Assembly: GCA_964439215.1 (NCBI GenBank)
Contig: CAYTNY010000001.1
Location: 33-64,032, forward strand
DNA: 64,000 nt
Direction: 5' to 3'
Source: an uncultured Spirochaetia bacterium
Lineage (GTDB): Bacteria; Oederibacteriota; PGYV01; CAYTNY01
Of this stretch, positions 11,680 through 48,865 are shown piece by piece; position 1 is the first letter of the stretch; every line of letters begins with the position of its first letter. The notes beneath the pieces were generated by a model. It searched no databases, had not been told where the DNA came from, and saw nothing but the letters and a program-made list of their open reading frames with translations. A program made the translations under genes and the position numbers.

Positions 11680-12111
11680 TTATCTCCTCCCTTCGGTTAT
11701 TGCGGTTTTCAGCATACCCAGCTTCAGTGAAGTAAGCCGGGCAAGCGTTGAATATGAAGCTGTATTTTCAGCAAGTTTTGACATTTCAGAATCAATATCA
11801 ACATTATTTTTATCTGTTCTTAATGATGTTTCTGTCCTTGTTACGATCTCAGGTTCAAGATCGCTTATGTTCATATTGGGCATTATCGGTATATGCCTGC
11901 TGTTAGTAATATTAAGGGGCAGGTAATTTTTCGCGCTGTCATCCAGAATTTCAGCCAGCTTGTTCTGAAATACCACCTCGGATCTTTTATACCCCGGCGT
12001 TTCTGCGTTTGCTATGTTGTTCGCAACCATTTTGTGCTGCATTGACGCCGCACTCAATGATTTCTCAAGTATCTGATATATTTCACTGGAAAAAATACCG
12101 TCAATCATCAA
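11680..12111 (-). CDS. flgB: Flagellar basal-body rod protein FlgB
   Basis: Rod-protein motif IANAETPGYKRSEVVF. First gene of the flgB-flgC-fliE-fliF... operon. Only a 3-nt gap to flgC. Confidence 0.85.
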   Translation of the reverse strand: MMIDGIFSSEIYQILEKSLSAASMQHKMVANNIANAETPGYKRSEVVFQNKLAEILDDSAKNYLPLNITNSRHIPIMPNMNISDLEPEIVTRTETSLRTDKNNVDIDSEMSKLAENTASYSTLARLTSLKLGMLKTAITEGRR

Positions 12112-15817: not shown

Positions 15818-17836
15818 TCACTTATACACCGTACTTTTTATTATTATTTCAACTCTCCGGTTTTTTGCGCGGTTTTCGGATGTGCTGTTGGCCGCTACAG
15901 GATCTGTTTCTCCCTTTCCTGACACCCTTATTCTGCTTTCGTCAATACCCTGCAGATTTACCATAAAGAATTTAACGGCGCGGGCCCTTGCGCCCGACAG
16001 CTTTGTTCTTGTTCCGTATTCGCCCGGATCTTCCCTATTGTCCGTATATCCCGTTACCTTTATATCCGAATCCGGGAAGCTGCCAAGCACATCTTTTATT
16101 TCTTTCAATTTATTATACGCGGATATTTTCACGTTTGCCCTGCCCTGCTCAAATATCGCGTCAGAAGCAAATGTCAGTTTTATTTCTTTTAAAAGAATAA
16201 CCGCGGACTTAACAGGAGCCGCGCCCTTGTTCCCGGGATTGTCATGCGCCGTTAAAGAATAATAATATATTTCTCCTGTTTTCACATATCCGCCGTCATT
16301 TCCTCTGCCGTCCCACACAAGCTTTTCAGGAGGCGCTCCCGCGCCGGATGCTGAAAAAAACAATTCTTTATCATAATCCCAGACCGCCAGCTGCCAGTTC
16401 CTTATGCCGTTCCTGTCAAGGGCCCTCATTCTGAAAACCGCGGGTATTAAAAGAGCCTCATCTTCGCCCGGGCGCAGAAGTTTAGGCTCGGATAAAACAG
16501 AAACACGGGGCGGGGTATTGTCTATCTCCACTTTCACTGTATTTGACTCTGATATTGCCCTTCCGTAATCCACTTTAAGACGGGCGCTGTAAACTCCGTC
16601 AGGCAGAATCCGGCCGTCTTTATCTCTGCCGTCCCATATATATTCAAACCAATCCGGCGAAGACGCCTCAATAACAGCCGCGGGTTTATTTTCATTTTTT
16701 CCAAACACCTCCAGACTCATTTTTTTTATTTTCTCTTTTGAACCCGCATCCGCTTTAAACCGGGCAGTCCCGCTGCGGCTGCCGCCCCGCGAGGAAATAA
16801 CCGGCGGATAAACCGAAAGCTCCGACGGCGGCGCGCCCCAGCTGTAAGCCGCGGACATCCTGTGCGTCCCTCCGAGCTCTCCGTAATGAATAAAAGCATA
16901 ATCAACATCAAACCCTCCGAGTTTTATACCCAGTCCGGCTGTCAGGTGATTGAACCCTCCCGCAGCAAACCCTGTCCTGAACACCGCAATATCATTTATC
17001 GTGTATTCCGCTCCTCCTGAAAAAATAAAGTCATAATCAACGTGAAGATCCATCTGCACCGACAAAAGAAGCGGATATCCGGCTGCCTCAAAAACATCAG
17101 AGACACCCATTGACAGTATCTTGGGCGGTTCAAATGACATATTATTCAGTTTCACTTCGGTTCCTATATTTGATATCGCAACACCAAAACCTATAAGATG
17201 ATGATCATCAAACATCAGCATTTTATACAAGAGCCCCATATCCGCGGATAAATTATAACCCGTATAATCCGCCATACTCTCGGAATTAAAGTTTATCTTA
17301 AATCCCGTGGAAATATATTCATTAAGATATATGCCGTATGCGGCGGAGGCCGAATAATTATAAGGAAAATAAACCCCGTCCGAAAATTCATTCCAGTCTA
17401 CTCCTGAATTCAGATATACAGGATCATATGACGGCAGATCATAATTCCGCGAAAGCCCTCCCGCGCGCAGCATTGAAAAAGAAAAACCCATTTTTGTATT
17501 TTCCATAAAAGGAGAAGGCATTACAAAAGAAATATGCTCCATCCCGATGTCCTCAAACCACATTATATGAGATGCCTGAATTTCATAGGCCCTTACATAG
17601 GAAATACCCGCAGGATTATAATACATGCCGTATGTGCCTTCCGATACAGCCGTATATGCCCCACCCATACCGGCTGCCCCCGCCATAGGGGATATTTTCA
17701 TGAAATTATTTGAAGTGGTGCCCGTAAGCCGGCTGTCAGGCAAAACATTACGCGAAAAAAACACAACAGCCAGAAAAAGCACGCTCCAAAAAACAAGCAC
17801 TGTTCTCATCCGCATTGCCGCCGGTTTCACATTCAT
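15818..17836 (-). CDS. Outer-membrane protein with an N-terminal PorV/UPF0164-like barrel, two FlgD_Ig-like domains and a C-terminal OmpA peptidoglycan-binding domain
   Basis: Signal peptide. N-terminal motif AGAAGMGGAYTAVSEGTYGMYYNPAGISYV matches the PorV-like paralog at 25472 (GAAAGGMGNAY...NPAGLS). Two WDGRDKDGRILPDGVYSARL / WDGRGNDGGYVKTGEIYYY motifs of FlgD_Ig type. C-terminal OmpA_C motif VTGYTDNREDPGEYGTRTKLSGARARAV...NRRVEI. Confidence 0.65.
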   Translation of the reverse strand: MNVKPAAMRMRTVLVFWSVLFLAVVFFSRNVLPDSRLTGTTSNNFMKISPMAGAAGMGGAYTAVSEGTYGMYYNPAGISYVRAYEIQASHIMWFEDIGMEHISFVMPSPFMENTKMGFSFSMLRAGGLSRNYDLPSYDPVYLNSGVDWNEFSDGVYFPYNYSASAAYGIYLNEYISTGFKINFNSESMADYTGYNLSADMGLLYKMLMFDDHHLIGFGVAISNIGTEVKLNNMSFEPPKILSMGVSDVFEAAGYPLLLSVQMDLHVDYDFIFSGGAEYTINDIAVFRTGFAAGGFNHLTAGLGIKLGGFDVDYAFIHYGELGGTHRMSAAYSWGAPPSELSVYPPVISSRGGSRSGTARFKADAGSKEKIKKMSLEVFGKNENKPAAVIEASSPDWFEYIWDGRDKDGRILPDGVYSARLKVDYGRAISESNTVKVEIDNTPPRVSVLSEPKLLRPGEDEALLIPAVFRMRALDRNGIRNWQLAVWDYDKELFFSASGAGAPPEKLVWDGRGNDGGYVKTGEIYYYSLTAHDNPGNKGAAPVKSAVILLKEIKLTFASDAIFEQGRANVKISAYNKLKEIKDVLGSFPDSDIKVTGYTDNREDPGEYGTRTKLSGARARAVKFFMVNLQGIDESRIRVSGKGETDPVAANSTSENRAKNRRVEIIIKSTVYK

Positions 17837-24664: not shown

Positions 24665-24810
24665 GCCGGAACACGGCAGCTTGGTTAAAAATCAAAAGCC
24701 GGAACACGGCAGGGCGTGTTCCCTACGAAAAAAAGAAAAAGAAAAAACTTGCGGGCCTGCGCTTTGTTTTTTTTGTTTTCGCAGGAACAATCCCCTGTGC
24801 TTGTCCGGGT
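24665..24810. repeat. Second copy of the REP-like hairpin element (modules in inverted orientation relative to 15644-15725)
   Basis: ggaacacggcagggcgtgttcc+ctacgaaa at 24701-24730, a half copy gccggaacacggcagc at 24665-24680, and ttttcgcaggaacaatcccctgtgcttgtccgggttttt at 24775-24812. The reverse complement aligns almost base-for-base with 15644-15725 (22-nt identical aaaacccggacaagcacagggg). Confidence 0.6.
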
Positions 24811-24935: not shown

Positions 24936-25460
24936 ATGAAAATATTTAAACTTTGTTTTATTGGTTTTATATTTGTTTTTGCGGCTTCTACGGTTTTCGC
25001 GACAGAAACAGTAACGCAGACAACAACAGAAACAACAACACAGACCGTTACGCCGACAACAACGCAGACAGCCACACAGACAGTCACGGAAACAGCTACG
25101 CCTGACTGGACCCCTACCGGCACATTTACAATAACACCTACCGCCACAATAACACCGACTTTCACATCAACACCCACGCCGCAGCCTAAGTTTTTCGCTT
25201 ACCCCAACCCCGCATATACCAATGAAATAACAATTGCGTATCCTCTGGATGACGCCAAAACTCCGCTGCGGGCAACTATCATAATAAACGCGGTAAACGG
25301 CGAGGAAGCAGGAAGAATATACGATGATACGCCCAACGGATATACCCGTTTTGATATAACGGCTCTCGCAAGAGGAGTTTATTTTTACAGGCTTATAATA
25401 AAATACACGGACAATTCCGAAACTGTTCATAAATATAAAAAATTCTCAGTGGTTAAATAG
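24936..25460 (+). CDS. Secreted Thr-rich protein with a T9SS-type C-terminal sorting domain (Por_Secre_tail-like)
   Basis: Signal peptide MKIFKLCFIGFIFVFAASTVFA. About 60-aa T/Q/P-rich repeat linker (TETVTQTTTETTTQTVTPTTTQ...). C-terminal ~80 aa carry hallmarks of TIGR04183 CTDs (AYPNPAYTNEITIAY ... GVYFYRLIIKY ... KFSVVK). TAGGAGG RBS. Confidence 0.6.
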   Translation: MKIFKLCFIGFIFVFAASTVFATETVTQTTTETTTQTVTPTTTQTATQTVTETATPDWTPTGTFTITPTATITPTFTSTPTPQPKFFAYPNPAYTNEITIAYPLDDAKTPLRATIIINAVNGEEAGRIYDDTPNGYTRFDITALARGVYFYRLIIKYTDNSETVHKYKKFSVVK

Positions 25461-25471: not shown

Positions 25472-26410
25472 ATGAAAAAAATCACCGCAGCCATTACGCT
25501 TTTTCTTTTAATATCAACACAGCTTTTTGCTGTAACCGAAATTTACGACGATTCTTCAACCGTAGCGGGGAAATTTCTGGACCTTAAGGCCGGAGCCGCG
25601 GCAGGCGGCATGGGGAATGCCTATATCAACTCTTCCGTTGACGCAGGCGCCGCTTTCTGGAATCCCGCGGGGCTTTCAAATATGATAAAAGAAGATAAAG
25701 AATGGTCAATGTTCTTTTCGCACAATGTCTGGATCATGGATATGATGATAGACCACTTTTCAGCCGCGTCATATTTTCCTGAGTACGGCGTTTTTGCCCT
25801 TAGTGCTTCTTATTTTAACGCCGGCGCAATAGAACGCTATGATATTGACGGGAACGGACTTTATATAAGCAGCGGAACCTATTCGCCCTACTCGCTCATG
25901 ACCGCGCTTGCCTACTCAAATCATCTGGACAAGGACATAGACTTCGGAATAAACCTGAAATATATCTACGATAACATTGACGGCTCTTCGGCCCACGCTT
26001 ATGCCATAGATATGGGGCTCAGATATTTTTCTCCTATAGACGGCTTAAACTTCGGTCTTACAGCCTCTAATTTTTCCGGTTCCCTCAATGGTTTTATTCT
26101 GCCGAAAGAAATGTCTTTTGCTGTTTCATACAGCACTGAAATACAGAAATTCGGAATTGACGCGGAATACAACATAATAGGCAAAGTAAACAACTACCCG
26201 CTGCACAGAATCGGGCTGCAGATAGCCGCTCCTTCGGTATTTACAGCGAGATTCGGCTATCAGACAGATAACACGCTGACGGAAAACGGCTTCAGAAATC
26301 TCACGCTGGGAATAGGGCTGGATTTTGACGGCAGATACATAGATTTCTCCTATGAACCTTTTGGCGATATCGGAAATTCTTTCAAGCTTTCCATCGGCGG
26401 GGGCTTTTGA
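25472..26410 (+). CDS. PorV/PorQ-like (UPF0164/FadL-like) outer-membrane beta-barrel
   Basis: Signal peptide. N-terminal motif GAAAGGMGNAYINSSVDAGAAFWNPAGLS. Alternating beta-strand pattern ending in an aromatic residue. AGGAGG RBS. 12 nt downstream of the CTD-cargo gene. Confidence 0.55.
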   Translation: MKKITAAITLFLLISTQLFAVTEIYDDSSTVAGKFLDLKAGAAAGGMGNAYINSSVDAGAAFWNPAGLSNMIKEDKEWSMFFSHNVWIMDMMIDHFSAASYFPEYGVFALSASYFNAGAIERYDIDGNGLYISSGTYSPYSLMTALAYSNHLDKDIDFGINLKYIYDNIDGSSAHAYAIDMGLRYFSPIDGLNFGLTASNFSGSLNGFILPKEMSFAVSYSTEIQKFGIDAEYNIIGKVNNYPLHRIGLQIAAPSVFTARFGYQTDNTLTENGFRNLTLGIGLDFDGRYIDFSYEPFGDIGNSFKLSIGGGF

Positions 26411-26413
26411 TAC

Positions 26414-27787
26414 TCAGTCTATAACAAGTTTATAGTCTTTTATTTTTCTCCAGAGCGTTGACCTTGAAACACCAAGCGCTTTGGAGATTTTTGTATGGTT
26501 TTTCCCGAATCTCTCAAACGCTTTTAATATAACCCTCTTTTCAACCTCCGCAAGATTAAACTCATCATCAATGTTTTTGTCTTTTTCTCCGGATTCAGGA
26601 CTGTCCGGATTATACGCTTCAAGTTCTCTGTAAGGAGTAATATTCTGAAGATGAACCGGCAGGTCTTCCACCGTGATATAATCCCCGTTAGAAAGCGCAA
26701 AAGCATGCTGGATTATATTTTCCATTTCCCTCACATTTCCGGGATAATCATAGTACATAAGTATTGCCTTTGCCTTTTGTTCTATTCCCATTATGTTTTT
26801 TTTATTGAGTTTGTTGTATTTTTCTATAAAAAAACGCACCAGAACAGGTATGTCGTCTTTTCTTTCCCTCAGAGGCGGTATCTCTATATGTATTACATTC
26901 AGCCGGAAAAACAGGTCTTCGCGGAATCTTTTTTCTTTTATCGCCTCTTTCAGATCCTGATTTGTCGCGGCAATTACGCGTATATCAACCTTTTTGGTGT
27001 TTTCATCCCCAAGTCTTCTGACTTCTCTGTACTCCAGCGTCCTGAGAAGTTTTGCCTGAAGCCCGAGGCTCAAATCGCCGATTTCATCAAGAAACAGCGT
27101 GCCCTTATCCGCCAGTTCAATCAGTCCTTTTTTATCCGATACAGCTCCCGTAAACGCCCCTTTTCTGTATCCAAACAGCTCTGATTCAAGAAGATTTTCA
27201 GGAATAGCCGCGGAATTCACCGCTATAAAAGGATTATTGGACCTGCCGCTCATTTCATAAAGCGCCCTTGCAATCAATTCCTTTCCTGTTCCGGTTTCTC
27301 CCGTAATAAGAATATTGCTGTTATTTGAAGCAACTTTCTTTACAATTCCCGTAACCTTTCTGATCTTCTCGGAATTTCCCACAAACCTGTTTTCGAAATA
27401 TTCCAATGCGTCCATATCCTCTTCCCGTTCTTTTTCCATAAACGCTTTTTCCGCAAGGTATTTAATTTCATTCAGATTTATGGGTTTTGATATATAGGCA
27501 AATCCGGCCCGGCCCGCCATTTCTATTGCTTTGTTTATTTTTTCCCTGCCGCTTACAACCACAACTTTAAGCGAAGGGGTTCTTCTTTTTATGAAATTTA
27601 TTATGTCCAGTTCCAGCTCTTCCACGATGTCAATGTCAAGTATAAGAAGTTTGAAATTACTCTGTATCTTGTTCATGAGTGATCCGGAATCCGTGACAAT
27701 ATAAGGAGAATAAGACAACTCATCAAAAAAATTGTTTATTCTTATGGCATCATCTTTATCTGTAAGCGCAACAAGTATTTTCCCCAT
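26414..27787 (-). CDS. Sigma54-dependent Fis-family response regulator (NtrC-like, REC-AAA-HTH)
   Basis: Walker A GETGTGKELIARALYE. Sigma54-contact GAFTGA motif (ESELFGYRKGAFTGA). C-terminal Fis HTH KALGVSRSTLWRKIKDY. N-terminal receiver-like domain. No histidine kinase adjacent. Confidence 0.85.
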   Translation of the reverse strand: MGKILVALTDKDDAIRINNFFDELSYSPYIVTDSGSLMNKIQSNFKLLILDIDIVEELELDIINFIKRRTPSLKVVVVSGREKINKAIEMAGRAGFAYISKPINLNEIKYLAEKAFMEKEREEDMDALEYFENRFVGNSEKIRKVTGIVKKVASNNSNILITGETGTGKELIARALYEMSGRSNNPFIAVNSAAIPENLLESELFGYRKGAFTGAVSDKKGLIELADKGTLFLDEIGDLSLGLQAKLLRTLEYREVRRLGDENTKKVDIRVIAATNQDLKEAIKEKRFREDLFFRLNVIHIEIPPLRERKDDIPVLVRFFIEKYNKLNKKNIMGIEQKAKAILMYYDYPGNVREMENIIQHAFALSNGDYITVEDLPVHLQNITPYRELEAYNPDSPESGEKDKNIDDEFNLAEVEKRVILKAFERFGKNHTKISKALGVSRSTLWRKIKDYKLVID

Positions 27788-27794: not shown

Positions 27795-30149
27795 CTATTC
27801 TCCTTTGATCTGCTTTCTTAGATCCAGTAAACCGCTGTCTTCCGGAAATGTTTTTATTCCGCGATCCAAAACATTCAATGCTTGTTTTTTGTTTCCTTTT
27901 GTATAATACACATATGCTTCAAAACTATAAAGTTCCGCGGAATTTGTTTCATTTTTTGCTTTTTTGAAGTTCTCCAGTGCTTTTTCATACCTCTTTGTTT
28001 GAAAATAAAACACTCCCAGATTCCTATATATTATACCTTCCTTATAATCATTTTCAAGTAAAAAATCCGCAATGTATTCTGCTTTCCGGTATTCATTTTG
28101 AGTCAGTTTTTCGCCTTTTGAAAGCATTTCAGTAAGCTTAGCCATTGCAATTTCAAACCATTTGCTGTTATCTGATTCTTTCAGCGATTTAAGCAGAGCA
28201 GCAACCCTGCTGTTTTCACTTCCCATTGATACTGCTTTTTTCAGATTTTCACCGGCTTTTTCAAAGATTCCAAGATTAAAATATATTCCTCCAAGATGCT
28301 CAAAAACCCTGGGATTGCTTTCTTCTTTTTCCGCGGCTAAAATAAGATATTTCATTTCATTTTTAAAATCATCAAGATTTGAATAAGCAAGAGCAATATT
28401 ATAAAAGATCATTGATTCCGGCTTGTCCACAGGGAACAAAAGCGCTTTTTTATAAAGTTTTACCGCTTCCTCCGGATAACCCGACGCATTCAGTGCATTT
28501 GCCTGATTTACCATACTTACGGGGTACCATCCTATCAGATCATTATTGTTCTTTGTAAGCCTCGCAAAATCTTCAAACACCCCCCTATACGAATATCTTT
28601 CAAAAACATCCGGACCATAAAGCCTCTGTTTTTTTGATATCCTCAGCAGTATGCCTTTCTGGGAAAAAACAAACCCTTCAGGCGGATGCTCCATTTCAGG
28701 CAGATAGCTGCTCCTGTAAACCGCTTCATCCGGAGAATAAAACCGCACAATCTCAGCAATATTTTCCGCGGTCTTAAACGGCGTCATTTTTATATCACCG
28801 TATCTGCCGGAAAAATCCTCAATACCCCAGTCAAATATAATAAAAGAAGATGTAGCAAACTTAACATCCTTTCGTCTTTTCTGTACTTCCATAATATAAT
28901 ACAGCGGCATAAGGTTATAATCGCCGTCAGCTATATAGACGCCGTCTTTTTCCACGGTCCTTAAAATATTATATCCGTAATCATAGGATAGATAATCCTC
29001 TTTATAATCATTTTTTATGAAATTGGACCAAAACATAAGAACCCCGCCGGCCGCGGCAAGAACAATAAAAAGTTTTTTATACCGCCGGCCCCTTATTCTT
29101 GTGTAAATATACGCTATTCCTGCTGAAATAAAAAGCCCTGCCAGATAGACCGCGGGCATAAGAAAAATATATATCAGCCAGATAACGCCTTCCTGTGTTC
29201 TGTTAAGAAAAACAACCGCAAATATTATAATAAAAGCAGCTGCCGCCAGAAGAACCGATATTCCGCGCGCCCTCTTATAGCCGGCATAAATACCGGCCGG
29301 CAGAAAAACACACAGCACCGAAAAATTCACGGCAAAAAGATATAAAAAATGCTTTACCTGGTATAAATACACATCAGCGGAAGGCGTGACAGGATTAACA
29401 TATCCCCGGCGCAGAACAACCCATAAGAATCCGGATAAGCCGGAAGAAGGATCGCCCCAGTTAAAAACAGGATCAGAAGATGACCTGATAACAAGAAATA
29501 AATACGGCGTGAGCCCTGCCAGAAAAAACAGCGCGGAAATAATATAATTTTTCCCTGATGTCTTTTTGCGGAAAATATATAGACAGGAAGCAAAAACCGG
29601 CGCTAATATTATCATGCTGGGCCAGTGATTGGAAAGGGACAAGCCATAGATATAGGATGACATATATATATATACAGGCGTCTTTGCGCTTTTTGCCTTA
29701 AGCATGGAAAAAATAATAACCGCAAGAAACAGCAGGTTCAGCATATAAATACTTCCCTTTGCCTCTGTTCCCTGATTCCAGAAAATATAGGAAAACGCCG
29801 TTAAAACCGCTCCCGCCCCCGCCCATATGCGCATACCGCTTCCGAAAATATTTATATTAAGCATGATCAGTATTCTGTAAGTCATATAAAGTATTATCAT
29901 CCCCAGAAACGAAGAAAAAACATTCATTCGGAACGCCGGAGACGCAAAAGAAGGCAGGCAGGCGATCTTCCCTGCCATTGTGTGCAGAGGATAAGCCGGA
30001 GGATGCGCTATGCCCAGAGTGTATGCCGCAGCCGCGGTCTCGGGCGAATCATTGTTTTTAAACACAGGGTTCATCGTGTGAAGATAAACACCGAATATAA
30101 AAACCACAACAACCACAGCCGCCGTATATGTTATTGGCTTTTGCTTCAT
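27795..30149 (-). CDS. DUF2723-family (TMEM260/GT-C-like) polytopic membrane protein fused to C-terminal TPR repeats
   Basis: N-terminal motif AYTLGIAHPPAYPLHTMAG typical of DUF2723. About 11 TM helices over the first ~400 aa. C-terminal ~300 aa of TPR-like repeats. Confidence 0.6.
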   Translation of the reverse strand: MKQKPITYTAAVVVVVFIFGVYLHTMNPVFKNNDSPETAAAAYTLGIAHPPAYPLHTMAGKIACLPSFASPAFRMNVFSSFLGMIILYMTYRILIMLNINIFGSGMRIWAGAGAVLTAFSYIFWNQGTEAKGSIYMLNLLFLAVIIFSMLKAKSAKTPVYIYMSSYIYGLSLSNHWPSMIILAPVFASCLYIFRKKTSGKNYIISALFFLAGLTPYLFLVIRSSSDPVFNWGDPSSGLSGFLWVVLRRGYVNPVTPSADVYLYQVKHFLYLFAVNFSVLCVFLPAGIYAGYKRARGISVLLAAAAFIIIFAVVFLNRTQEGVIWLIYIFLMPAVYLAGLFISAGIAYIYTRIRGRRYKKLFIVLAAAGGVLMFWSNFIKNDYKEDYLSYDYGYNILRTVEKDGVYIADGDYNLMPLYYIMEVQKRRKDVKFATSSFIIFDWGIEDFSGRYGDIKMTPFKTAENIAEIVRFYSPDEAVYRSSYLPEMEHPPEGFVFSQKGILLRISKKQRLYGPDVFERYSYRGVFEDFARLTKNNNDLIGWYPVSMVNQANALNASGYPEEAVKLYKKALLFPVDKPESMIFYNIALAYSNLDDFKNEMKYLILAAEKEESNPRVFEHLGGIYFNLGIFEKAGENLKKAVSMGSENSRVAALLKSLKESDNSKWFEIAMAKLTEMLSKGEKLTQNEYRKAEYIADFLLENDYKEGIIYRNLGVFYFQTKRYEKALENFKKAKNETNSAELYSFEAYVYYTKGNKKQALNVLDRGIKTFPEDSGLLDLRKQIKGE

Positions 30150-30201
30150 AAAATCCCCTTTATATCCCGGATAACCGCAGGCTTCAAATGCGGTCCGGTT
30201 T

Positions 30202-32070
30202 TTATTCCGGTCCTTGTTCTGTTTTAATTATTGCTTTTATATAAGGATCCATTTTTCCGTCATCACCGTTAAACCGAATATACTTTTCAGCTGTTTTTTT
30301 CGCGTTTTCTGTATCACCGGCCGCCATATACGCGGTTATAAGGTTTATATAAGCCGTTTCATAGTGCGGCGCCGCAAAAACAGCGGTTTCAAGATGCTGT
30401 ATCGCTTCTTTGAGGCTGCCGGTGCCCTCCGCGGACAGCTGCCCGGAAAGCGCGCCGAACATATTATTCACTTCAGGACAATACGGATTTATTTCCAGGT
30501 CTTTTTTATAATATTCATAGGCTTTTTTCGGATACCCGGCCTGCCGGTAGGCTTCCGCCGCATAATAATACTGAGCAACATCTGTCTGCGGGCAAAGCTC
30601 AACGTTATTCTGCTCAACTATACGCTCATAATAATTTATAGCGCTTTTATAATGCCCGCTTTTGACCAGACGGTTGGCCTGCTTAAGATATATGTTTGAC
30701 GCGGCCGCTTTTCCGTCCGCAGCCGCCGAAAACATTATCAGAAAAGCCGATGCAGCAGCTCCGGCTATGGCGCCTTTTTTTCCTATGCCGGCGCTTTTTA
30801 ATGACCGCTCTTTCTTATATGCCGACACAAAAAATATGAGTATAAAAAAATAAAGTGTTGTCGCCGGAATATTGTAAAAAGTATTAAACAGCGAAGCGCC
30901 CAGCAGCGCAGCAGCGCCCGAAACCGCTCCAGCAAGAAAAGGATCGCCTCTTTTTCTTATATAAAAACTCCTGTAAGCGGAATAAAACAATACCGCAACA
31001 ACGGCAAGAAAGGCCCCCAGCCCTAAAATACCCGTTTCCGAGGCTATAAGTATATAATTCTGATGAGGCATCCAGGTCACCACATAATCATATTTATCGT
31101 TTTTTGGATCATTTAAAAGTATTCCCTGGTAATGCGGAAAATTCAGTCTGTACATACCCATGCCTTTGCCTTTAACCGGTGATTCTTTGATCATGAGCCA
31201 TCCGGCTTCCCACATAAGAAACCTGTGTATCACAGACCGCTGCTTGCCTTCAAGAAATCTTTTTGATTCTGCCAAAACAGCCGGATATACGGCGGCGCCG
31301 CCGATAATAAGCGCAAGCAGCGCGGCGGCAGCTGCCTTTTTGCGCCGTTTAATGAACATTTTCACATGACTGCCTTTTAATGTCAGCCATAAGATTGCAA
31401 ACAAAGCCATGCCGCCCGCAAAACCTATGTAAGTACCCGCCACTTTTGCGTATAAAAATACCGCGAACATAACAACAAACCCCGCACCCGCGGCAGCCTT
31501 ATGTTTTTTTCCCAAAACCGCGTAAGACAGCAGAAGAAACATCGGTATAAGAAGCTGTGACGCAAAAAAATTAGGATTGCCGATGGTGCCCATGGGCCGC
31601 CCCTGAAAATTTGTGTTCCAGCTGAAAATATCCGCATCAAATCTCTGAGCAAGCCCGTAAACCGCCATTATCACATGGACAAAAAACACTAAAAACAGCA
31701 TTCTTCTGCCGTCATTTTCATCGGAAACGTTCCAGATAAAATAGGCCCCGAAAATAAAAAGTACAAGTTCAAAAGCATACTTGGAGGCGATCTGCGCATT
31801 CATCGCCCATGCAACGGAAAGAACCGCGATAACCGCATATAAGAACGCGGGAAAAAGAGCAGGATTGATTTTTACCTCAAATCCCCCTCTGCGCCGCGCT
31901 TCAAGAAAATACAGCAAAAAGAAAAAAGGCAGAAAAAGACGCGCGGCCATAAGCTGGGCAGGGCCGAAAGGATCAAAAAACGGCTGAAAAAAAACCACGG
32001 GGATAAACAGAATTATGAAATTAAGAATATTTTTTCTTAAAAGAATTAACAGCCTGAGATTCAATATCAC
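30202..32070 (-). CDS. O-antigen ligase (Wzy_C)-domain membrane protein fused to C-terminal TPR repeats
   Basis: Multi-TM N-terminal region with Wzy_C hallmarks (GNPNFFASQLL; MPHQNYILIASETGILGLGAFL). C-terminal ~200 aa TPR repeats (KSAINYYERIVEQN...AEAYRQAGYPKKAYEYYKKDLEINP). Confidence 0.6.
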   Translation of the reverse strand: MILNLRLLILLRKNILNFIILFIPVVFFQPFFDPFGPAQLMAARLFLPFFFLLYFLEARRRGGFEVKINPALFPAFLYAVIAVLSVAWAMNAQIASKYAFELVLFIFGAYFIWNVSDENDGRRMLFLVFFVHVIMAVYGLAQRFDADIFSWNTNFQGRPMGTIGNPNFFASQLLIPMFLLLSYAVLGKKHKAAAGAGFVVMFAVFLYAKVAGTYIGFAGGMALFAILWLTLKGSHVKMFIKRRKKAAAAALLALIIGGAAVYPAVLAESKRFLEGKQRSVIHRFLMWEAGWLMIKESPVKGKGMGMYRLNFPHYQGILLNDPKNDKYDYVVTWMPHQNYILIASETGILGLGAFLAVVAVLFYSAYRSFYIRKRGDPFLAGAVSGAAALLGASLFNTFYNIPATTLYFFILIFFVSAYKKERSLKSAGIGKKGAIAGAAASAFLIMFSAAADGKAAASNIYLKQANRLVKSGHYKSAINYYERIVEQNNVELCPQTDVAQYYYAAEAYRQAGYPKKAYEYYKKDLEINPYCPEVNNMFGALSGQLSAEGTGSLKEAIQHLETAVFAAPHYETAYINLITAYMAAGDTENAKKTAEKYIRFNGDDGKMDPYIKAIIKTEQGPE

Positions 32071-33083
32071 AGCCCGTAATAATCCCCTTCATTTATGGCC
32101 GCACCCGCGGCCCCTATCGCACCCGCAAGCTCTCCCAGTTTCGCAGGAACAATAACCGCGTCCGAAAACGGAGCAGCAAACGCTTTTTTTCCTGTTTCTT
32201 TCCTGAGCGGCGTAAAAAGCCTGTTCCCCGCATTTATTACTCCCCCCGCAATAACAACGACTTCCGGATTTAGAGTGTTTAATATTCCGGCCAGAGACGC
32301 GGATAAATGCCGGATAAAATCATCCCATACTTCCAGGGCGACCTTATCTTTATTTAAAAGCGCTTCATAAACTGTTTTTGATGTTATTTTGTTCATGTCC
32401 CCTTTTGCAATCTGCACTATCATTGACTGTCTTTTTTCTCTTATTTTTTCTTTTGCCGACTCCGCAATGGCCGTAGCCGAAGCATACGCTTCAATACACC
32501 CTGAAGCCCCGCAGGAGCATTTTTTCCCGTTTATATCAATTATGGTATGCCCTATCTCGCCGGCCGTGCCGGAATTCCCCCTGTGCAGCCTGTTATTAAG
32601 TATTATGCCTCCGCCGACGCCGGTACCCAGCGTCAGGCCGACCACATCAGCGGCGCCTTTTGCCGCGCCTGTCCATTTTTCTCCGTATACCGCGCAGTTC
32701 GCGTCGTTTTCCACCGCTGTTTTTATGCCTGTCTTTTTTTCAATTTTTTGTTTTAATTTTATATCTTTCCATCCCGGCATATTCGGAGCAAGCCTGACAA
32801 TTCCTTTTTTACTGTCCAGCGGGCCGGGCACGCCTATACCCATTCTTTTAACATTTTGTTTTTTTATGCCCGCGGATCTGATAATACCGTTGATTTTTTC
32901 CGCCATATTGTCAATTATAAAATCCGGACCCTTTGCCGCTTCTGTTTCCATGCGCTCTGTTCTGACTACTTTACCCTTATAAGTAATCAGAACAAGAACA
33001 ATATTTGTGCCTCCAAGATCCACGCCTACGGCGTATTCAGCTTCCGGCTTCTTTGAGTTCTGCTTTTTCTTTTTTAAAGTCAT
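32067..33083 (-). CDS. ROK-family sugar kinase (glucokinase-like)
   Basis: ROK motifs VGVDLGGTNI, GIGVPGPLD and CSCGASGCIEAYAS. Lys-rich N-terminal extension. Overlaps the downstream ligase-like gene by 4 nt. Confidence 0.8.
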   Translation of the reverse strand: MTLKKKKQNSKKPEAEYAVGVDLGGTNIVLVLITYKGKVVRTERMETEAAKGPDFIIDNMAEKINGIIRSAGIKKQNVKRMGIGVPGPLDSKKGIVRLAPNMPGWKDIKLKQKIEKKTGIKTAVENDANCAVYGEKWTGAAKGAADVVGLTLGTGVGGGIILNNRLHRGNSGTAGEIGHTIIDINGKKCSCGASGCIEAYASATAIAESAKEKIREKRQSMIVQIAKGDMNKITSKTVYEALLNKDKVALEVWDDFIRHLSASLAGILNTLNPEVVVIAGGVINAGNRLFTPLRKETGKKAFAAPFSDAVIVPAKLGELAGAIGAAGAAINEGDYYGL

Positions 33084-33136: not shown

Positions 33137-33220
33137 TTGGTGCGAGGAGCGGGACTTGAACCCGCACCGGTCGCCCGACATGGCCCTCAACCATGCGTGT
33201 CTACCATTCCACCACCCTCG
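33137..33220 (-). tRNA. tRNA-Leu (anticodon GAG)
   Basis: Hand-folded cloverleaf: acceptor stem GCGAGGG/UCCUCGC with a G-U pair, discriminator A, encoded CCA, 3-bp D-stem, anticodon stem CAUGG/CCAUG, loop UUGAGGG, long variable arm, T-stem GCGGG/CCCGC with a UUCAAGU loop. Confidence 0.85.
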
Positions 33221-33242
33221 CGCCGATTATATCATTTCCCTT

Positions 33243-33668
33243 CTATTCATCAATAATCCTGTAATCAACAGGCTTTGCGTTTCTTTTATCAGGAACGAAA
33301 ATACCCAGTATCATGGAGAGTATGCTGTAAAAAACAGAGCCAGCGACAGCGCCCCAGAAACTTTTAACCTCAAAACCGTTCACAAGCAGCCCTGCCAGCG
33401 CAAACATAACTCCATTAATAACAAAAGTAAGCAGGCCAAATGATAACACGTTTATGGGCAAAGTCAATAATAAAACAAACGGCTTAATAAACACATTTAT
33501 GACGGCAATAACAGCCGCGGCAGCCATTAAAATCACCAGACCTTCCAGGCCGTCGGCTTTTATCTCCAGGCCCTTTATCGTCTTCACAACAAGAAAAAGA
33601 GCAAAAGTATTCAAAAACCATTTTATGACAAGCGCTTTGGCATTATAGTCCCGCAATTCCACAACCAT
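33243..33668 (-). CDS. PF04020 (phage_holin_4_2 / YvlD-like) 4-TM membrane protein
   Basis: 141 aa, four hydrophobic helices in the pattern typical of the YvlD/DUF360 holin-like family. Its start lies 26 nt inside the 3' end of the cNMP-binding gene. Confidence 0.6.
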   Translation of the reverse strand: MVVELRDYNAKALVIKWFLNTFALFLVVKTIKGLEIKADGLEGLVILMAAAAVIAVINVFIKPFVLLLTLPINVLSFGLLTFVINGVMFALAGLLVNGFEVKSFWGAVAGSVFYSILSMILGIFVPDKRNAKPVDYRIIDE

Positions 33669-34107
33669 CCTTCACCAGCCTTTTATCCGCGTCTCTCAGC
33701 CGCTGAATAAGCACTTTGATAAATACTTCATTAAGCTTGACCACGACAGCGGGATAATCTTTTTTAAAAGAATTATAATCTCTTCCCGAAAAACGTATCA
33801 TTTTACAGGGTTTAATGGCAACTGCCGATGCGCTCCGCGGCGCGGGCACCATCATTGCCATCTCGCCGAAAAATTCGCCTTCCCTCAGATTGGCAATAAC
33901 CTTTTCCTCGGTCTTGTGTTTTTTTGTGATCTTCACCGCGCCCTCCGCTATTATATACATGGCATCATCACCTATCTGATTCTCCATAAAAATCCCGTCC
34001 CCGGTTTCAAACTCCTCCCAAAGCAGCCGTTCAGAAAAAACCTTTAATTCTTCCTCCGTGAAAATTCCGAAAAATTTCTGTTTTTTCAACACTTCAGCAT
34101 CAACCAT
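33643..34107 (-). CDS. Stand-alone cyclic-nucleotide-binding (CAP effector-domain) protein
   Basis: Phosphate-binding cassette GEFFGEMAMMVPAPRSASAVA. 154 aa with no output domain. Start is 1 nt after the rsmD stop. Confidence 0.75.
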   Translation of the reverse strand: MVDAEVLKKQKFFGIFTEEELKVFSERLLWEEFETGDGIFMENQIGDDAMYIIAEGAVKITKKHKTEEKVIANLREGEFFGEMAMMVPAPRSASAVAIKPCKMIRFSGRDYNSFKKDYPAVVVKLNEVFIKVLIQRLRDADKRLVKDGCGIAGL

Positions 34108-36123: not shown

Positions 36124-36783
36124 ATGATATCAGGCAAAAACATAGATAAAACCATGAATATCTTAAAAAAAATATCCTCTGCTTATAAACCGCCTGTACT
36201 GGAGCGGTTTGCGTATGATAAAAAAGATCCGTACTGGGTGCTTATACCGTGCCTTTTATCTTTAAGGGCAAGAGATGAAACAACGGCTGTTGTTTCGGAA
36301 AAACTTTTTGCCGCCGCGCCCGCACCTGCCGAAATAATGAAACTGCCGCGCCCCAAACTTGAAAAAATAATTTACAAAAGCGGTTTTTACAGAAACAAAG
36401 CCAAAGCCATACACGAAACAACCAAAATGCTTATAGAAAAATACAGCGGAAAGGTCCCCGACAGCCTTGAAGAACTTTTAAAACTTCCCGGAGTAGGAAG
36501 AAAAACCGCAAATCTCGTTGTGACAGCAGCGTTCAATAAGCCCGGCATCTGCGTTGATACCCATGTCCACAGAATCACCAACCGCTGGGGCTATGTAGAC
36601 ACAAAAAACGCGGATAAAACCGAAATGCGATTAAGAGAAATTCTTCCGAAAAAATACTGGATAAAAATAAACTATCATCTCGTGCTTTTCGGCCAGAACA
36701 TCTGCCTTCCTGTATCCCCTTACTGCTCCCGCTGTCCTCTGCGCGGAATGTGCCCCCAAAAAAACGTCAGAACACCGCGCTGA
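36124..36783 (+). CDS. nth: Endonuclease III (HhH-GPD base-excision DNA glycosylase, FeS cluster loop)
   Basis: HhH motif LKLPGVGRKTANLVV. Catalytic region CVDTHVHRI. C-terminal Cys cluster CLPVSPYCSRCPLRGMC. Confidence 0.85.
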   Translation: MISGKNIDKTMNILKKISSAYKPPVLERFAYDKKDPYWVLIPCLLSLRARDETTAVVSEKLFAAAPAPAEIMKLPRPKLEKIIYKSGFYRNKAKAIHETTKMLIEKYSGKVPDSLEELLKLPGVGRKTANLVVTAAFNKPGICVDTHVHRITNRWGYVDTKNADKTEMRLREILPKKYWIKINYHLVLFGQNICLPVSPYCSRCPLRGMCPQKNVRTPR

Positions 36784-44949: not shown

Positions 44950-45750
44950 TCAGTAACCGGTTATAAATATTTTTGCTCTGTCTGCTTTTTTTATGATCTT
45001 CTCCCTGTCAAGAAGAAATGTTCTGCCTGCCTCAAGCGCAATTCCCGCGCCTTTATGTTTTTGAATAAGATCTATTGTTTTTTCTCCCACAACAGGAACG
45101 TCATACCTCATATCCTGTCCCGGCCTTGCCGCTTTTACGACCACAAAGCCCGGCCCGCCTTCCGCCGCGGCGCGTTCAATGCATTTATCTGTTCCTTCCA
45201 TTGCTTCAACCGCAATTATTGACTTCTTTTTCACAACAACCGTCTGTCCTATATCCAGCGACGCCGTCTTTTTCGCGATCTTAATTCCCAGCTGAATATC
45301 CCGGATATTATCTTTCCCCGGCGCTGTTTTTCCCGCATTTCCCTTTCCCGCAAGAAAATCCTCAAGAAGATATGTACTCTTTAAGACCTTTATTCCTTTT
45401 TCCGAAAAAAGGTCTATTATCCCTTTCATTACCGCGGCTGCCCTGAAATCCTTAAGTTTCATAAGAGTCTTTAAAGTAAGCATGTCAAACTTTATATTTT
45501 TAACAAGATTTGCGTGCCGAATATAACCCAAAAGCACTATCCTGTCAACCGCTTCTTTTCTGCATATACGGATGATTTTAGAAAGCTCCGTTATTTTTAT
45601 TTCATAAGGCTCTGAATATTCGGCAAGCGCTTTTATGTCAGCCTCGCCTGTTATTCCGAAAACAACCACGGGCTTTTTTTTCTCCGCTGCTTTGCGCAGG
45701 AACAAAAGCGGCAGGCTGCCTCCTCCCGCCGCAAGGGCTGTTTTCTTCAC
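44950..45750 (-). CDS. lpxI: UDP-2,3-diacylglucosamine pyrophosphatase LpxI (DUF1009)
   Basis: DUF1009-type N-terminus LAAGGGSLP. Size 266 aa. Immediately downstream of lpxA with a 4-nt overlap, as in other lpxI-bearing genomes. Confidence 0.65.
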   Translation of the reverse strand: MKKTALAAGGGSLPLLFLRKAAEKKKPVVVFGITGEADIKALAEYSEPYEIKITELSKIIRICRKEAVDRIVLLGYIRHANLVKNIKFDMLTLKTLMKLKDFRAAAVMKGIIDLFSEKGIKVLKSTYLLEDFLAGKGNAGKTAPGKDNIRDIQLGIKIAKKTASLDIGQTVVVKKKSIIAVEAMEGTDKCIERAAAEGGPGFVVVKAARPGQDMRYDVPVVGEKTIDLIQKHKGAGIALEAGRTFLLDREKIIKKADRAKIFITGY

Positions 45751-46514
45751 CTTATGATACCTCTGGCGGATGTTTCCGCGAATTCAATAAAATGCCTGAC
45801 ATCTTCGGTATTCTCCGCCTGTTTTTTCACGGTTTCAACCGCTTCTTTCATCATAAGTTTCTTTCTGAAAATAATATTATATGCGTTTTGAAGCGCCTTT
45901 ATCCTCGCGGAGTCAAAACCTTTTCGTTTCAGTCCGACTTTATTCAGCCCGAACGTTCTTGCGGGCTCGCTGACAACCATGACAAACGGCATTGCGTCTT
46001 TGGTGACCCTGCATCCTCCGCCTATCATGCTGTATGCGCCTATTCTGACGCCCTGGTGCACAAGCACCGTACTGCTTATAAACGCATGGTCCTCAACAAG
46101 CGTGTGCCCCGCCAGCTGTGCGGCGTTTACTATTATAACATTATTCTTCACCCGCGCATCATGGGCCATATGAACATATCCCATGATAAAGTTATTGTCT
46201 CCTATACGGGTCGCGCCGCCGGGAGCGGTTGCCCTGTGTATTGTGGCATATTCCCTTATGACATTTCCGTCTCCCACAATAACAAATGATTCTTCGTCTT
46301 TAAATTTTGTATCCTGCGGCTTATCGCCTATCAGCGTGCCTTCTCCGATATAATTTCCTCTGCCCAGGACAGTGCCTTTTTTAAGATGAACCTTCGGCGC
46401 GATTTCGCATTCATCTCCCACAACAACGCCTTCATCAATTATGGCAAAGGCTCCCACCTTTACATTTTTTCCTATTTCCGCTTTTTCGGAAACCAGAGCT
46501 GTATCGTGTATCAC
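45747..46514 (-). CDS. lpxA: Acyl-ACP--UDP-GlcNAc O-acyltransferase LpxA
   Basis: Left-handed beta-helix hexapeptide repeats. N-terminus MIHDTALVSEKAEIGKNVKVGAFAII. 255 aa. Confidence 0.85.
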   Translation of the reverse strand: MIHDTALVSEKAEIGKNVKVGAFAIIDEGVVVGDECEIAPKVHLKKGTVLGRGNYIGEGTLIGDKPQDTKFKDEESFVIVGDGNVIREYATIHRATAPGGATRIGDNNFIMGYVHMAHDARVKNNVIIVNAAQLAGHTLVEDHAFISSTVLVHQGVRIGAYSMIGGGCRVTKDAMPFVMVVSEPARTFGLNKVGLKRKGFDSARIKALQNAYNIIFRKKLMMKEAVETVKKQAENTEDVRHFIEFAETSARGIIR

Positions 46515-46535
46515 TTCACTTCTCCTTTTTCATCA

Positions 46536-46976
46536 TCAGGCGATCATAGCCATCATATCCGCTTCCGCGGCTTTGTCCTCTCCGACAAAAGCGTCCCCGT
46601 GTATTTTTCCTATCTTTCCTTTAAATTTTTCTATTGTCACCTTCATCGTCAGCGTGTCCCCGGGAACCACCGGCCTTCTGAACTTCACATTGTCAATTGA
46701 CATGAAATAAATGGCTTTTCCTTCCTGTCCTTCAAGTTTTTTCATGAGAAGCACCCCGCCGGTCTGCGCCATTGCCTCCACAATCAGAACCCCCGGCATT
46801 ACGGGTTCATCCGGATAATGCCCCTGGAAGAACCATTCATTCATAGTCACATTCTTTATTCCTGTAATTGACTCCCCTTCTGTGATTTCCGTTATTCTGT
46901 CCACGAGCAGCATAGGGATCCTGTGGGGAATAAGTTTCATAATTTCTTTAACATTCAGCTTTGTTTCCATAATCAT
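46536..46976 (-). CDS. fabZ: 3-hydroxyacyl-ACP dehydratase FabZ
   Basis: Hotdog fold. Active-site region FFQGHYPDEPVMPGVLIVEAMAQ. Confidence 0.9.
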   Translation of the reverse strand: MIMETKLNVKEIMKLIPHRIPMLLVDRITEITEGESITGIKNVTMNEWFFQGHYPDEPVMPGVLIVEAMAQTGGVLLMKKLEGQEGKAIYFMSIDNVKFRRPVVPGDTLTMKVTIEKFKGKIGKIHGDAFVGEDKAAEADMMAMIA

Positions 46977-47015
46977 TCACCTCGTTTTTTTTCATGAATT
47001 AATATACGGCCGGGA

Positions 47016-47837
47016 TTATTTTTTAATCGTGCGGATTTTCTTTATTGCTTCTATATTATGCCTGTGCCCTGTCTTATAGGCAATAACAAGCATTTTCAGT
47101 CCTGAACCCAGAATGCCGAAGTCGCCTATTACATCAAGAGCCTTATGCCTTGCCAGTTCGTTTTTATACCGCAGTCTTGTATTAACGGCCCTGCCTTTAT
47201 CCATCAGAACCGCGTTTTTAGGCCCCGCGCCTTTTATAAGCCCGCTTTTTATGAGCCCCTGCAGTTCTTTTTTAAAGCCAAAAGTTCTGGCCCGGCAGAT
47301 GCGTTTTAAGTATGTATCAGGCGTTACCTCCGATGAAAACTCCATCGGCCCGCATCCCATTTCGGAAAAATCGGAAAAATAATAAACTTTAAACACAGGA
47401 TACGGAATAACAGCCAGAAAACAGCCGTTGTCTTTAACTGCCGCAGGCTCTTTTATTTCCAGTGTTTTTTTTAATGCATTCTGTTTTTTCAGCCCCGCAC
47501 TCAAAACAGCTTTCGCAAAAACCGCGGCGCTGCCGTCGCCGCAGGGAAGTTCGCCGCCTTTAATTTCAACGGTTATATTGTCTATTCCAAGCCCCCGCAC
47601 AGCCGATACCATATGCTCCACGGTATAAATCCTGCTTTTTCCTTTTTTTACGGATGTCCCGCGCCTTGTATCAAATACATTTTCGGGCCTCAGGGTATAT
47701 TTCTCATTATTATTCTTTATTATTATTCCTCTGCCGGGCGCGGCCGCGGAAAAAACCACGGTGCTTTCTCTGCCCTTGTGCAGGCCCCTGCCTTTTACCA
47801 GCGCGCTTCCCGCAATAGTAATCTGTTTTTCTCTCAT
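47016..47837 (-). CDS. lpxC: UDP-3-O-acyl-GlcNAc deacetylase LpxC
   Basis: N-terminus [24 protein letters not shown]. 273 aa. Overlaps lpxD by 4 nt. Confidence 0.85.
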
Positions 47838-48859: not shown

Positions 48860-48865
48860 TGAATC

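Follow-up and report, generated by a model that had tools for sequence, protein, structure and literature searches.

A conserved Goldbacteria gene run pairing a TMEM260-like and a WaaL-like membrane protein, both with tetratricopeptide repeat tails: a candidate locus for protein O-glycosylation

This work concerns a run of genes on the minus strand of contig CAYTNY010000001.1 (assembly GCA_964439215.1), within an analyzed stretch of 64,000 nt that we refer to as the window. The source is an uncultured bacterium, and the NCBI records of identical proteins belong to a metagenome-assembled genome (MAG) of Candidatus Goldiibacteriota. In the order of transcription, the run begins with a tRNA-Leu gene and continues with genes for a ROK-family sugar kinase, a membrane protein with a Wzy_C domain and C-terminal tetratricopeptide repeats (Wzy_C-TPR), a DUF2723/TMEM260-like membrane protein that also ends in TPRs (DUF2723-TPR), and an NtrC-type sigma-54 activator. 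Our preferred reading is that the enzymes of this locus carry out protein O-glycosylation, with Thr-rich secreted proteins as the likeliest acceptors, and we give it a probability of roughly one half. Judged by their sequences, the Wzy_C-TPR and DUF2723-TPR proteins belong to families whose members draw on lipid-linked sugars at the outer side of the cytoplasmic membrane, and both retain the catalytic residues. On this reading both are inner-membrane glycosyltransferases acting with lipid-linked sugars, with active sites and TPR tails that are predicted to face the periplasm. The reading rests on computed evidence, comprising homology, conserved catalytic residues, fold, predicted topology, synteny and recurrent gene pairing; the donor sugars, the protein acceptors and the cooperation of the two enzymes are inferred.

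The DUF2723-TPR protein

The DUF2723-TPR protein (784 aa; 27795-30149, minus strand) matches PF11028 at residues 34-196 (76.3 bits; cutoff 24.2), together with TPR families, and also carries a precomputed match to PF28495 (TMEM260_2). Against the structure of human TMEM260 (PDB 9rql), phmmer aligns its residues 12-444 with residues 30-475 (E = 3.4e-23), and a profile of 60 homologues aligns positions 13-479 with 30-509 (E = 3.8e-70), a match extending over the membrane core and a large part of the luminal Rossmann-like domain. By these sequence comparisons, the assignment of the protein as a TMEM260 homologue is secure. In a Foldseek search with the predicted model, the best membrane matches were PglB and STT3 (query-normalised TM-scores of 0.37-0.40); since the PDB set searched does not contain 9rql, the link to TMEM260 rests on the sequence and profile searches.

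In TMEM260, the substitutions D52A, H67A, R264A, Y267A and D441A each abolish activity (10.64898/2026.03.17.711096). The first four residues hold the donor, dolichyl phosphate mannose (Dol-P-Man), with D52 and H67 forming the sugar-recognition motif and R264 and Y267 lying in the donor-loading loop, while D441, in the luminal domain, serves as the base for activation of the acceptor threonine (10.64898/2026.03.17.711096). The alignment pairs these five, in the same order, with D34, H49, R247, Y250 and D410 of the DUF2723-TPR protein. D34 and H49 do not vary across the 60 homologues, conservation of R247, Y250 and D410 is at least 90%, and the immediate context of the base is DGD410 here versus RGD441 in TMEM260.

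The protein is basically divided into three parts. A GT-C transmembrane (TM) core of about 11 helices (aa 1-380; 29010-30149, minus strand), defined by PF11028 and the TMEM260 homology, has D34, E37 and H49 in its first periplasmic loop, where residues 45-55 form the motif LGIAHPPAYPL, and R247 and Y250 in its donor-loading loop. It is followed by a periplasmic Rossmann-like domain of five beta-strands, which the model and the alignment place at aa 381-530 (28560-29009, minus strand) and which holds D410. The C-terminal TPR array (aa 531-784; 27798-28559, minus strand) consists of 13 helices, recognized from TPR matches and the model, and is predicted to be periplasmic. In the AlphaFold2 model (pLDDT 94.6, pTM 0.89), TM helices extend to residue 379, the five strands fall within residues 404-505, and the 13 TPR helices span 533-783; the overall layout is the “wrist, palm, fingers” arrangement of TMEM260, with longer fingers. 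Hydropathy and the positive-inside charge bias place the N-terminus inside and the entire C-terminal lobe outside. That this core might be an ordinary transporter or an ArnT-type enzyme, a possibility that the earlier note on this DNA had kept in view, is ruled out by the TMEM260 homology and by the conserved donor-binding and catalytic residues.

A search with the first 520 residues gives a family of 10,665 representative clusters (counted at 50% identity) at E ≤0.001, and 5,340 at E ≤1e-10.

The Wzy_C-TPR protein

The second enzyme (622 aa; 30202-32070, minus strand) matches PF04932 at residues 197-355 (53 bits; cutoff 31.7) and TPR_14, TPR_19 and TPR_2 at approximately residues 460-605. We use a GTG start for this protein; the NCBI start is two codons downstream. 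The membrane core (aa 1-452; 30715-32070, minus strand) has 13 predicted TM helices and a fold of the WaaL/PglL type (GT-C_B), and the C-terminal TPR domain (aa 453-622; 30205-30714, minus strand) contains about 4.5 repeats, with helices at residues 474-619 of the model. Hydropathy and the positive-inside rule agree on 13 helices, with all of the Lys/Arg-rich loops cytoplasmic, and the TPR domain is predicted to be periplasmic because it comes after TM13. As the earlier note had asked, then, the TPR arrays of both proteins are predicted to face the periplasm.

R158, R283 and H336 fall in predicted periplasmic loops, and are invariant in sets of 42 and of 16 homologues (orthologues and paralogues). 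A profile of the membrane core aligns R283 and H336 with R265 and H313 of WaaL, in an alignment that does not cover R158. The paper on PglS, by comparison with WaaL, assigns the Arg/Arg/His set to pyrophosphate binding and catalysis. In addition, the first loop carries a conserved QPFFDPFGPAQ motif, and the invariant E345 aligns with a Thr in WaaL. The C-terminal domain is of the TPR type rather than the PglL type, and structurally it is closest to peptide-binding TPRs such as MamA, HOP and Sti1. The extra thirteenth helix and the periplasmic TPR tail suggest that the acceptor is a protein, as for an O-oligosaccharyltransferase, rather than lipid A-core.

The NCBI name of the protein is “O-antigen ligase family protein”, and Wzy_C-TPR fusions in other lineages are named only generically. 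One paralogue (L035) shows weak, sub-threshold matches to RfaL and TfpM. Its best NCBIfam match (L035, 5933-7945) is to “IctB family putative bicarbonate transporter” (E = 3.9e-22, below cutoff), a model that appears to describe Wzy_C-fold proteins rather than transporters.

Thr-rich secreted proteins beside DUF2723 genes

Facing the activator gene on the opposite strand are genes for a PorV/PorQ-family outer-membrane beta-barrel (312 aa; 25472-26410, plus strand; NF033709, 124.4 bits, cutoff 90) and for a small secreted protein (174 aa; 24936-25460, plus strand), the latter being the only Thr-rich open reading frame (ORF) among 56 in the window. It is composed of a signal peptide, a TxTxT tract of about 65 aa (64% Thr in the best 25-aa window), the segment TPTPQPKFFAYPNPA, and a C-terminal domain of the type IX secretion system (T9SS) type. 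The tail scores 20.2 bits with TIGR04183 (cutoff 23), and that of the L002 orthologue 26.4 bits. All orthologues have the signal peptide, the TxTxT tract, the motif TPTPQPK(F/I)FAYPNPA and a C-terminal domain ending in K(F)A(V/I)(I/V)K, and a conserved sigma-70-like promoter (TTGACTTA...) lies 5′ of the gene. We consider the 174-aa protein to be a candidate acceptor substrate.

The divergent intergenic region (344 nt) between this gene and a minus-strand amidohydrolase gene contains two direct copies of GCCGGAACACGGCAG (24666-24722). The second copy forms a perfect hairpin (GGAACACG...CGTGTTCC) followed, on the minus strand, by a T-run, and the element may serve to bind a regulator or, as a terminator, to insulate the amidohydrolase gene.

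Much larger Thr-rich proteins are encoded beside DUF2723 paralogues in another MAG (MFD03726.bin.1.65; contigs CAWJRG0100000xx). In L018, two DUF2723 genes are flanked on the same strand by genes for Thr-rich proteins of 1622 and 1885 aa. The gene for a 2155-aa NHL-repeat protein precedes a DUF2723 gene on the same strand in L021, and in L022 the gene for a 2545-aa NHL-repeat protein precedes a DUF2723-like gene, with another Thr-rich gene and another DUF2723 gene further on. In L033, three Thr-rich tail proteins are followed by Wzy-like fragments, DUF2723 and GT4. The giant proteins of L021 and L022 pass the cutoff of Por_Secre_tail PF18962 (32.6 and 31.3 bits versus 27). In general, the Thr-rich neighbours of 1,600-2,500 aa in this MAG carry NHL propellers, FlgD_ig domains and T9SS tails.

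The co-occurrence with Thr-rich secreted proteins that the earlier note looked for is thus found for DUF2723 paralogues of the Goldbacteria clade; Thr-rich tracts were found beside none of the DUF2723 genes sampled from Firestonebacteria, Elusimicrobiota, Hydrogenedentota and other phyla. As a set of individual adjacency cases, the association is suggestive rather than proven. The literature searched contained nothing relevant on T9SS or glycosylation in Goldbacteria.

Conservation of the locus and recurrence of the enzyme pair

The neighbourhood is conserved, as the earlier note had expected of a functional system. A block consisting of a cyclic nucleotide monophosphate (cNMP)-binding gene, a holin-like gene, tRNA-Leu, ROK, Wzy_C-TPR, DUF2723-TPR and the activator, and then the PorV-like and Thr-rich genes running towards it, shows conserved synteny across at least 14 Goldbacteria/FCPU426 genomes (40-64% protein identity). 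The PorV-like and Thr-rich pair is always kept, the tRNA-Leu gene has the same position in the related loci examined, and the genes past the Thr-rich gene vary among genomes. Some variation also occurs between the two enzyme genes, in a slot that is empty in the window. Here one genome has a DUF6544/DUF6920 gene (L005, 9160-10011), and others have an extra DUF2723 paralogue that is shorter and is found with or without TPRs (L002, 2468-4876; L003, 2577-4535; L006, 7986-10001).

A second locus in the same genomes has a paralogous Wzy_C-TPR gene (~25% protein identity) immediately upstream of a DUF2723-TPR gene (~30% identity), so the pairing of the two enzymes is not an accident of one syntenic block. 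The order in this locus is ECF sigma factor, DUF3106, the enzyme pair, a GT4 glycosyltransferase, two free TPR proteins, an LIC_10190-family membrane protein, a Glycos_transf_4 (WecA/MraY-type) initiating transferase, an amine-oxidase-like flavoprotein and a second GT4; from its gene content, it reads as a lipid-linked glycan assembly line. At its start lies a cNMP-binding gene, followed by a gene for a class-II cAMP phosphodiesterase.

The DUF2723 family is expanded in these organisms, with at least nine copies besides the orthologue in MAG MFD03726.bin.1.65. Among the 114 immediate neighbours of 65 other DUF2723 loci, TPR proteins are the most frequent (21), followed by Wzy_C (8), GT4 (8) and DUF2723 itself (7); there is no universal partner, and most paralogues stand alone. 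The idea that the operon represents a general DUF2723 “system” is rejected because of this census. In L008 (6705-12376), genes for a secretin and a T2SSE-type ATPase are directly followed by that of a more distant DUF2723-TPR homologue (36% identity), an arrangement that recalls the pilin-linked position of TfpW.

The gene run, the kinase and the activator

Pfam and NCBIfam confirm that the four genes and the domains named in the earlier note are real, and all four lie on the minus strand. Its description as an operon is plausible; the activator gene (457 aa; 26414-27787, minus strand) lies outside the 27795-33083 interval that it gave, and is separated from the DUF2723-TPR gene by 7 nt rather than 8, with an AAGGAG within the 3′ end of that gene, ahead of the activator start. 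The run begins with the tRNA-Leu gene (anticodon GAG; 33138-33221, minus strand), which is directly 5′ of the ROK gene (338 aa; 32067-33083, minus strand; PF00480, E = 1.5e-72), the first protein-coding gene of the operon. The translational coupling to ROK that had been described is seen at the ROK/Wzy_C-TPR junction, where the ROK stop codon sits on the GTG start in a 4-nt overlap (ctGTGA), and the next junction is a gap of 52 nt. A sigma-70-like promoter (TTGATG-16-TATAAT, 33253-33226) lies 5′ of the tRNA, and a scan within the run found no hairpin terminator before ROK and no convincing internal terminator. Because of the tight junctions, the upstream promoter and this lack of a terminator, a single transcript from the tRNA to the activator is plausible. 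The activator gene and the PorV-like gene converge at 26410-26414 with their ends 3 nt apart, which leaves no space for an intergenic terminator for either.

The ROK protein has the Zn motif CSCGASGC (CxCGxxGC) and no N-terminal DNA-binding (HTH) domain, and scores just below the cutoff of the glucokinase model TIGR00744 (254.9 bits versus 260.35). Orthologues (55-64% identical) occupy the same position in related loci. It probably supplies hexose phosphate for donor synthesis, or is simply a housekeeping glucokinase.

The activator has a Sigma54_activat domain (E = 3.9e-71) with GAFTGA in the AAA+ domain, an AAA lid, an HTH_8 domain (E = 2e-10) and a weak receiver domain (Response_reg, 31.1 bits versus a cutoff of 30.2), and it reaches no NCBIfam equivalog cutoff. 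The earlier note was right that it lacks a cognate kinase nearby: no histidine kinase domain was found among the approximately 60 window ORFs scanned. The phospho-acceptor D51 is conserved in all 15 orthologues, and therefore the protein probably answers to a kinase encoded elsewhere. A search for TGGCAC-N5-TTGCW with up to two mismatches gave 8 matches in the window versus 28 expected by chance, with none well placed, and a GG-N10-GC scan 5′ of the ROK and Thr-rich genes in six loci found nothing conserved. Since these sigma-54 promoter searches were negative before both genes, we dropped the idea that the activator drives the operon or the adjacent Thr-rich gene.

These results bear on an alternative that we regard as quite possible, though short of probable, in which there is no dedicated system. 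The genes would then be neighbours by synteny only, with ROK a housekeeping glucokinase, the two glycosyltransferases acting independently on different targets, and the activator regulating unrelated sigma-54 genes such as flagellar or nitrogen genes. Whether the kinase and activator are bystanders is a question that stands independently of the choice between protein and envelope glycan as acceptor. The synteny does reach past the four genes, taking in AdoMet decarboxylase, DksA, a Cons_hypoth95 methyltransferase and the cNMP-binding and holin-like genes, through tRNA-Leu; against this, the genes are closely spaced (overlap, 52 nt, 7 nt) and no strong terminator separates them. The near-cutoff glucokinase score and the missing -24/-12 promoter 5′ of ROK and the Thr-rich gene, with sigma-54-like matches below chance, fit bystander roles, as does the large flagellar cluster in the window, a possible target of the activator; on the other hand, in most orthologous loci the activator and DUF2723 genes overlap. 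As for the enzymes, most DUF2723 paralogues stand alone and three loci have no Wzy_C gene, but the Wzy_C-TPR/DUF2723-TPR pair turns up again at a second locus outside the synteny, an argument that these two genes, at least, are linked.

Protein or envelope glycan as acceptor

In the preferred reading, the DUF2723 enzyme would bind a polyprenyl-monophosphate sugar, which would be undecaprenyl-P-hexose, through D34, H49, R247 and Y250. The TPR array would grip an extended acceptor polypeptide, D410 would deprotonate a Ser/Thr hydroxyl, and a single sugar would be moved with inversion, as in TMEM260. The Wzy_C-TPR enzyme, being of the WaaL/PglL type, would bind an undecaprenyl-pyrophosphate-linked oligosaccharide through R158 and R283 and pass it on en bloc using H336, with the TPR tail picking the protein acceptor. 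For the acceptors, TxTxT linkers of secreted T9SS-tail proteins are proposed, such as the one encoded beside the locus.

A number of observations weigh against this reading. For the DUF2723 enzyme, R355 of TMEM260 (TM helix 10), whose mutant keeps about 20% of the activity (10.64898/2026.03.17.711096), has no conserved Arg as its counterpart in the family alignment, where it aligns with I328 in a low-confidence stretch. The literature searched held no experimental work on any bacterial DUF2723 protein, the published work found being on the human enzyme only, in line with the earlier note’s description of the bacterial family as functionally uncharacterised. No gene for a polyprenyl-phosphate sugar synthase (GT2) is present among the approximately 60 window ORFs scanned. 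For the Wzy_C-TPR enzyme, an NCBIfam scan (E ≤0.01) gave TPR families only, with no O-oligosaccharyltransferase or RfaL model. Periplasmic TPR domains are also known in polysaccharide-export scaffolds, so a TPR tail is no proof of a protein acceptor. In L016, L017 and L024 the locus has no Wzy_C gene and DUF2723 comes directly after ROK, and hence the two enzymes need not act together. In addition, the second enzyme pair lies in an ordinary-looking glycan-assembly cluster, which fits a role in lipopolysaccharide (LPS) or exopolysaccharide as well as that of an oligosaccharyltransferase. On the acceptor side, the T9SS tail of the Thr-rich protein in the window is below the curated cutoff, Thr-rich adjacency to DUF2723 is seen in the Goldbacteria clade only, the adjacency cases lack a genome-wide Thr-rich background frequency, and the L021 and L022 pairs may be duplicates of one another.

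A second alternative, which we place on the unlikely side, is that both are envelope-glycan enzymes. The Wzy_C-TPR protein would be an O-antigen ligase or a Wzy-type polymerase, the DUF2723 protein, like ArnT or GtrC, would take one sugar from an undecaprenyl phosphate-sugar donor and add it to LPS, lipid A-core or exopolysaccharide, and the TPR tails would dock onto export or assembly partners. WaaL is the sole solved structure matched by the Wzy core, in keeping with the NCBI name, but canonical WaaL has no thirteenth helix and no C-terminal periplasmic domain, whereas the O-oligosaccharyltransferase PglS has both. The organism makes lipid A and has BamA and Skp, although no Wzx, Wzz or ABC exporter was seen at the locus. 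The clustering of the paralogous pair with an initiating phosphoglycosyl transferase, GT4 enzymes and free TPR proteins also suits an envelope glycan, as does the census, in which Wzy_C and GT4 are the commonest non-TPR families. However, the sole characterised DUF2723 member acts on protein, and its luminal acceptor-activating base is conserved here; a single glycan target also fits less easily with at least nine DUF2723 paralogues in one genome, several of them beside Thr-rich cargo.

The remaining alternative draws on Porphyromonas, in which attachment of cargo to A-LPS depends on WaaL. The Wzy_C-TPR protein would build or ligate a comparable lipid-anchored glycan, which the DUF2723 enzyme would modify and to which cargo with a T9SS-type C-terminal domain would be attached after PorV-type shuttling. 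We consider this improbable: the locus always abuts a PorV/PorQ-family barrel and a protein with a T9SS-type C-terminal domain, and a second PorV-family protein (fused to FlgD_ig and OmpA domains) is encoded 8 kb away, but the window showed no genes for a PorU sortase, SprA or PorK-N, the match of the C-terminal domain is weak, and the three genomes without the Wzy_C gene still keep the PorV-like and Thr-rich pair.

As to the candidate protein O-glycosylation system proposed in the earlier note, then, the enzymology came through each of the refutations that the note had set out, with a DUF2723 core that is not a transporter and a conserved neighbourhood that includes Thr-rich secreted proteins. 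The protein acceptor is inferred, and only synteny, within a single clade, connects the ROK kinase and the activator with the enzymes.

The surrounding window

The second PorV/PorQ-family protein (672 aa; 15818-17836, minus strand) combines the barrel (NF033709, 111 bits) with a FlgD Ig-like domain and an OmpA peptidoglycan-binding domain. On the other side of the locus, the genes for a cNMP-binding protein and a PF04020 “phage holin 4” family membrane protein (33243-34107, minus strand) overlap by 26 nt and are directly 5′ of tRNA-Leu and ROK; this pair is kept in related loci where the flank is present. The remaining genes of the window are housekeeping genes, including those for SMC, FtsY, RecJ and pyrimidine synthesis, and two clusters that together identify the organism as a flagellated, LPS-making diderm: a flagellar cluster (177-12111; FlgE, FlgD, FliK, FliJ, FliI, FliH, FliG, FliF, FliE, FlgC and FlgB) and a lipid A/outer-membrane cluster (44950-51778; LpxI, LpxA, LpxC, LpxD, Skp and BamA). 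Throughout the window (1-64000), nearly all genes are on the minus strand and the GC skew is negative (cumulative -6.05), which places it within one replichore. The few plus-strand genes include those for an HNH endonuclease (52107-52682) and an HhH-GPD glycosylase (36124-36783).

Novelty and significance

The earlier note’s description of an undescribed system was overstated. Both enzyme families are already known, and their database names already point in the right direction. The DUF2723-TPR protein has no specific name in NCBIfam, but carries the Pfam/database label “protein O-mannosyl-transferase TMEM260-like” and the NCBI record “protein O-mannosyl-transferase family”, and the Wzy_C-TPR protein is assigned to the O-antigen ligase family. 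The role of TMEM260 as a protein O-mannosyltransferase in humans has been known only since 2023, with structure and mechanism following in 2026. What is absent from the literature searched is any function for bacterial TMEM260 homologues, their recurrent pairing with a TPR-fused WaaL-like enzyme, the expansion of paralogues and their adjacency to Thr-rich cargo. The locus offers useful pairings, namely an enzyme with its catalytic residues intact, a recurrent candidate partner enzyme, and candidate substrates next door. The organisms are uncultured, and the hypotheses are open to heterologous expression.

We also entertain a broader proposal, which is rather doubtful at present: that a so far undescribed pathway of protein O-glycosylation operates with two enzymes in the periplasm of Goldbacteria and neighbouring candidate phyla, with the TMEM260-type enzymes as an expanded, PMT-like family beside the TPR-fused WaaL-like enzyme. 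The TMEM260-type enzymes would place single sugars on TxTxT linkers of T9SS-type proteins, with the TPR array of each paralogue tuned to the neighbouring cargo, and these or related proteins would receive an oligosaccharide en bloc from the WaaL-like enzyme. If protein O-glycosylation is correct, didermic bacteria would have a third way of making this modification, in addition to PglL-type oligosaccharyltransferases and to glycosyltransferases of the cytoplasm. The Thr-rich linkers of secreted proteins in these phyla would then be explained, a bacterial family with more than 5,000 sequence clusters would gain its first function, and the TMEM260 pathway of metazoans would be given a prokaryotic root. 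If instead the enzymes serve envelope glycans, the locus would be an ordinary addition to LPS/exopolysaccharide enzymology.

Comparison with known systems

The closest relative of known function is TMEM260 (PDB 9rql, 9rqm and 9rqn; PF11028), which shares with the DUF2723-TPR protein the 11-TM GT-C core, the five-stranded Rossmann-like domain, the TPRs, a C-terminus on the non-cytoplasmic side (predicted here), and the five essential residues. The two differ in overall sequence (~25% identity), in the number of TPR helices (5 in the human enzyme versus 13 here), and at R355, for which there is no conserved equivalent. The human donor is Dol-P-Man, whereas the donor here must be a bacterial polyprenyl phosphate sugar, and the human IPT-domain sequon has no obvious counterpart, the candidate acceptors being TxTxT linkers. 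Unlike TMEM260, the family here has many paralogues per genome.

For the Wzy_C-TPR protein, WaaL of Cupriavidus metallidurans (PDB 7tpg/7tpj) provides the aligned periplasmic active-site Arg and His at about 17% identity, but canonical WaaL is only about 400 aa and is without a C-terminal periplasmic domain. PglS, as reported, resembles the Wzy_C-TPR protein more closely in having 13 TM helices and a C-terminal periplasmic domain, although in PglL and PglS this domain differs from the TPR array found here.

TMTC1-4, PMT/POMT and the actinobacterial PMT are multi-paralogue families of GT-C enzymes that use polyprenyl-P-mannose on the non-cytoplasmic face; the TMTCs have C-terminal TPR arrays, and the PMTs act on Ser/Thr-rich stretches of secreted proteins. 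The TMTC (GT105) and PMT (PMT_2/GT39) enzymes are nonetheless other sequence families, and no significant similarity to the DUF2723 protein was found. TfpW of Pseudomonas aeruginosa, a pilin D-arabinofuranosyl transferase that uses a polyprenyl-phosphate sugar and was modelled on ArnT, is an 11-TM GT-C enzyme with a periplasmic TPR domain; it O-glycosylates pilin, and its gene is beside pilA. Its substrate is a type IV pilin rather than a Thr-rich linker, but, compared by description only, it provides a bacterial precedent for a TPR-tailed GT-C enzyme that is encoded beside its protein substrate.

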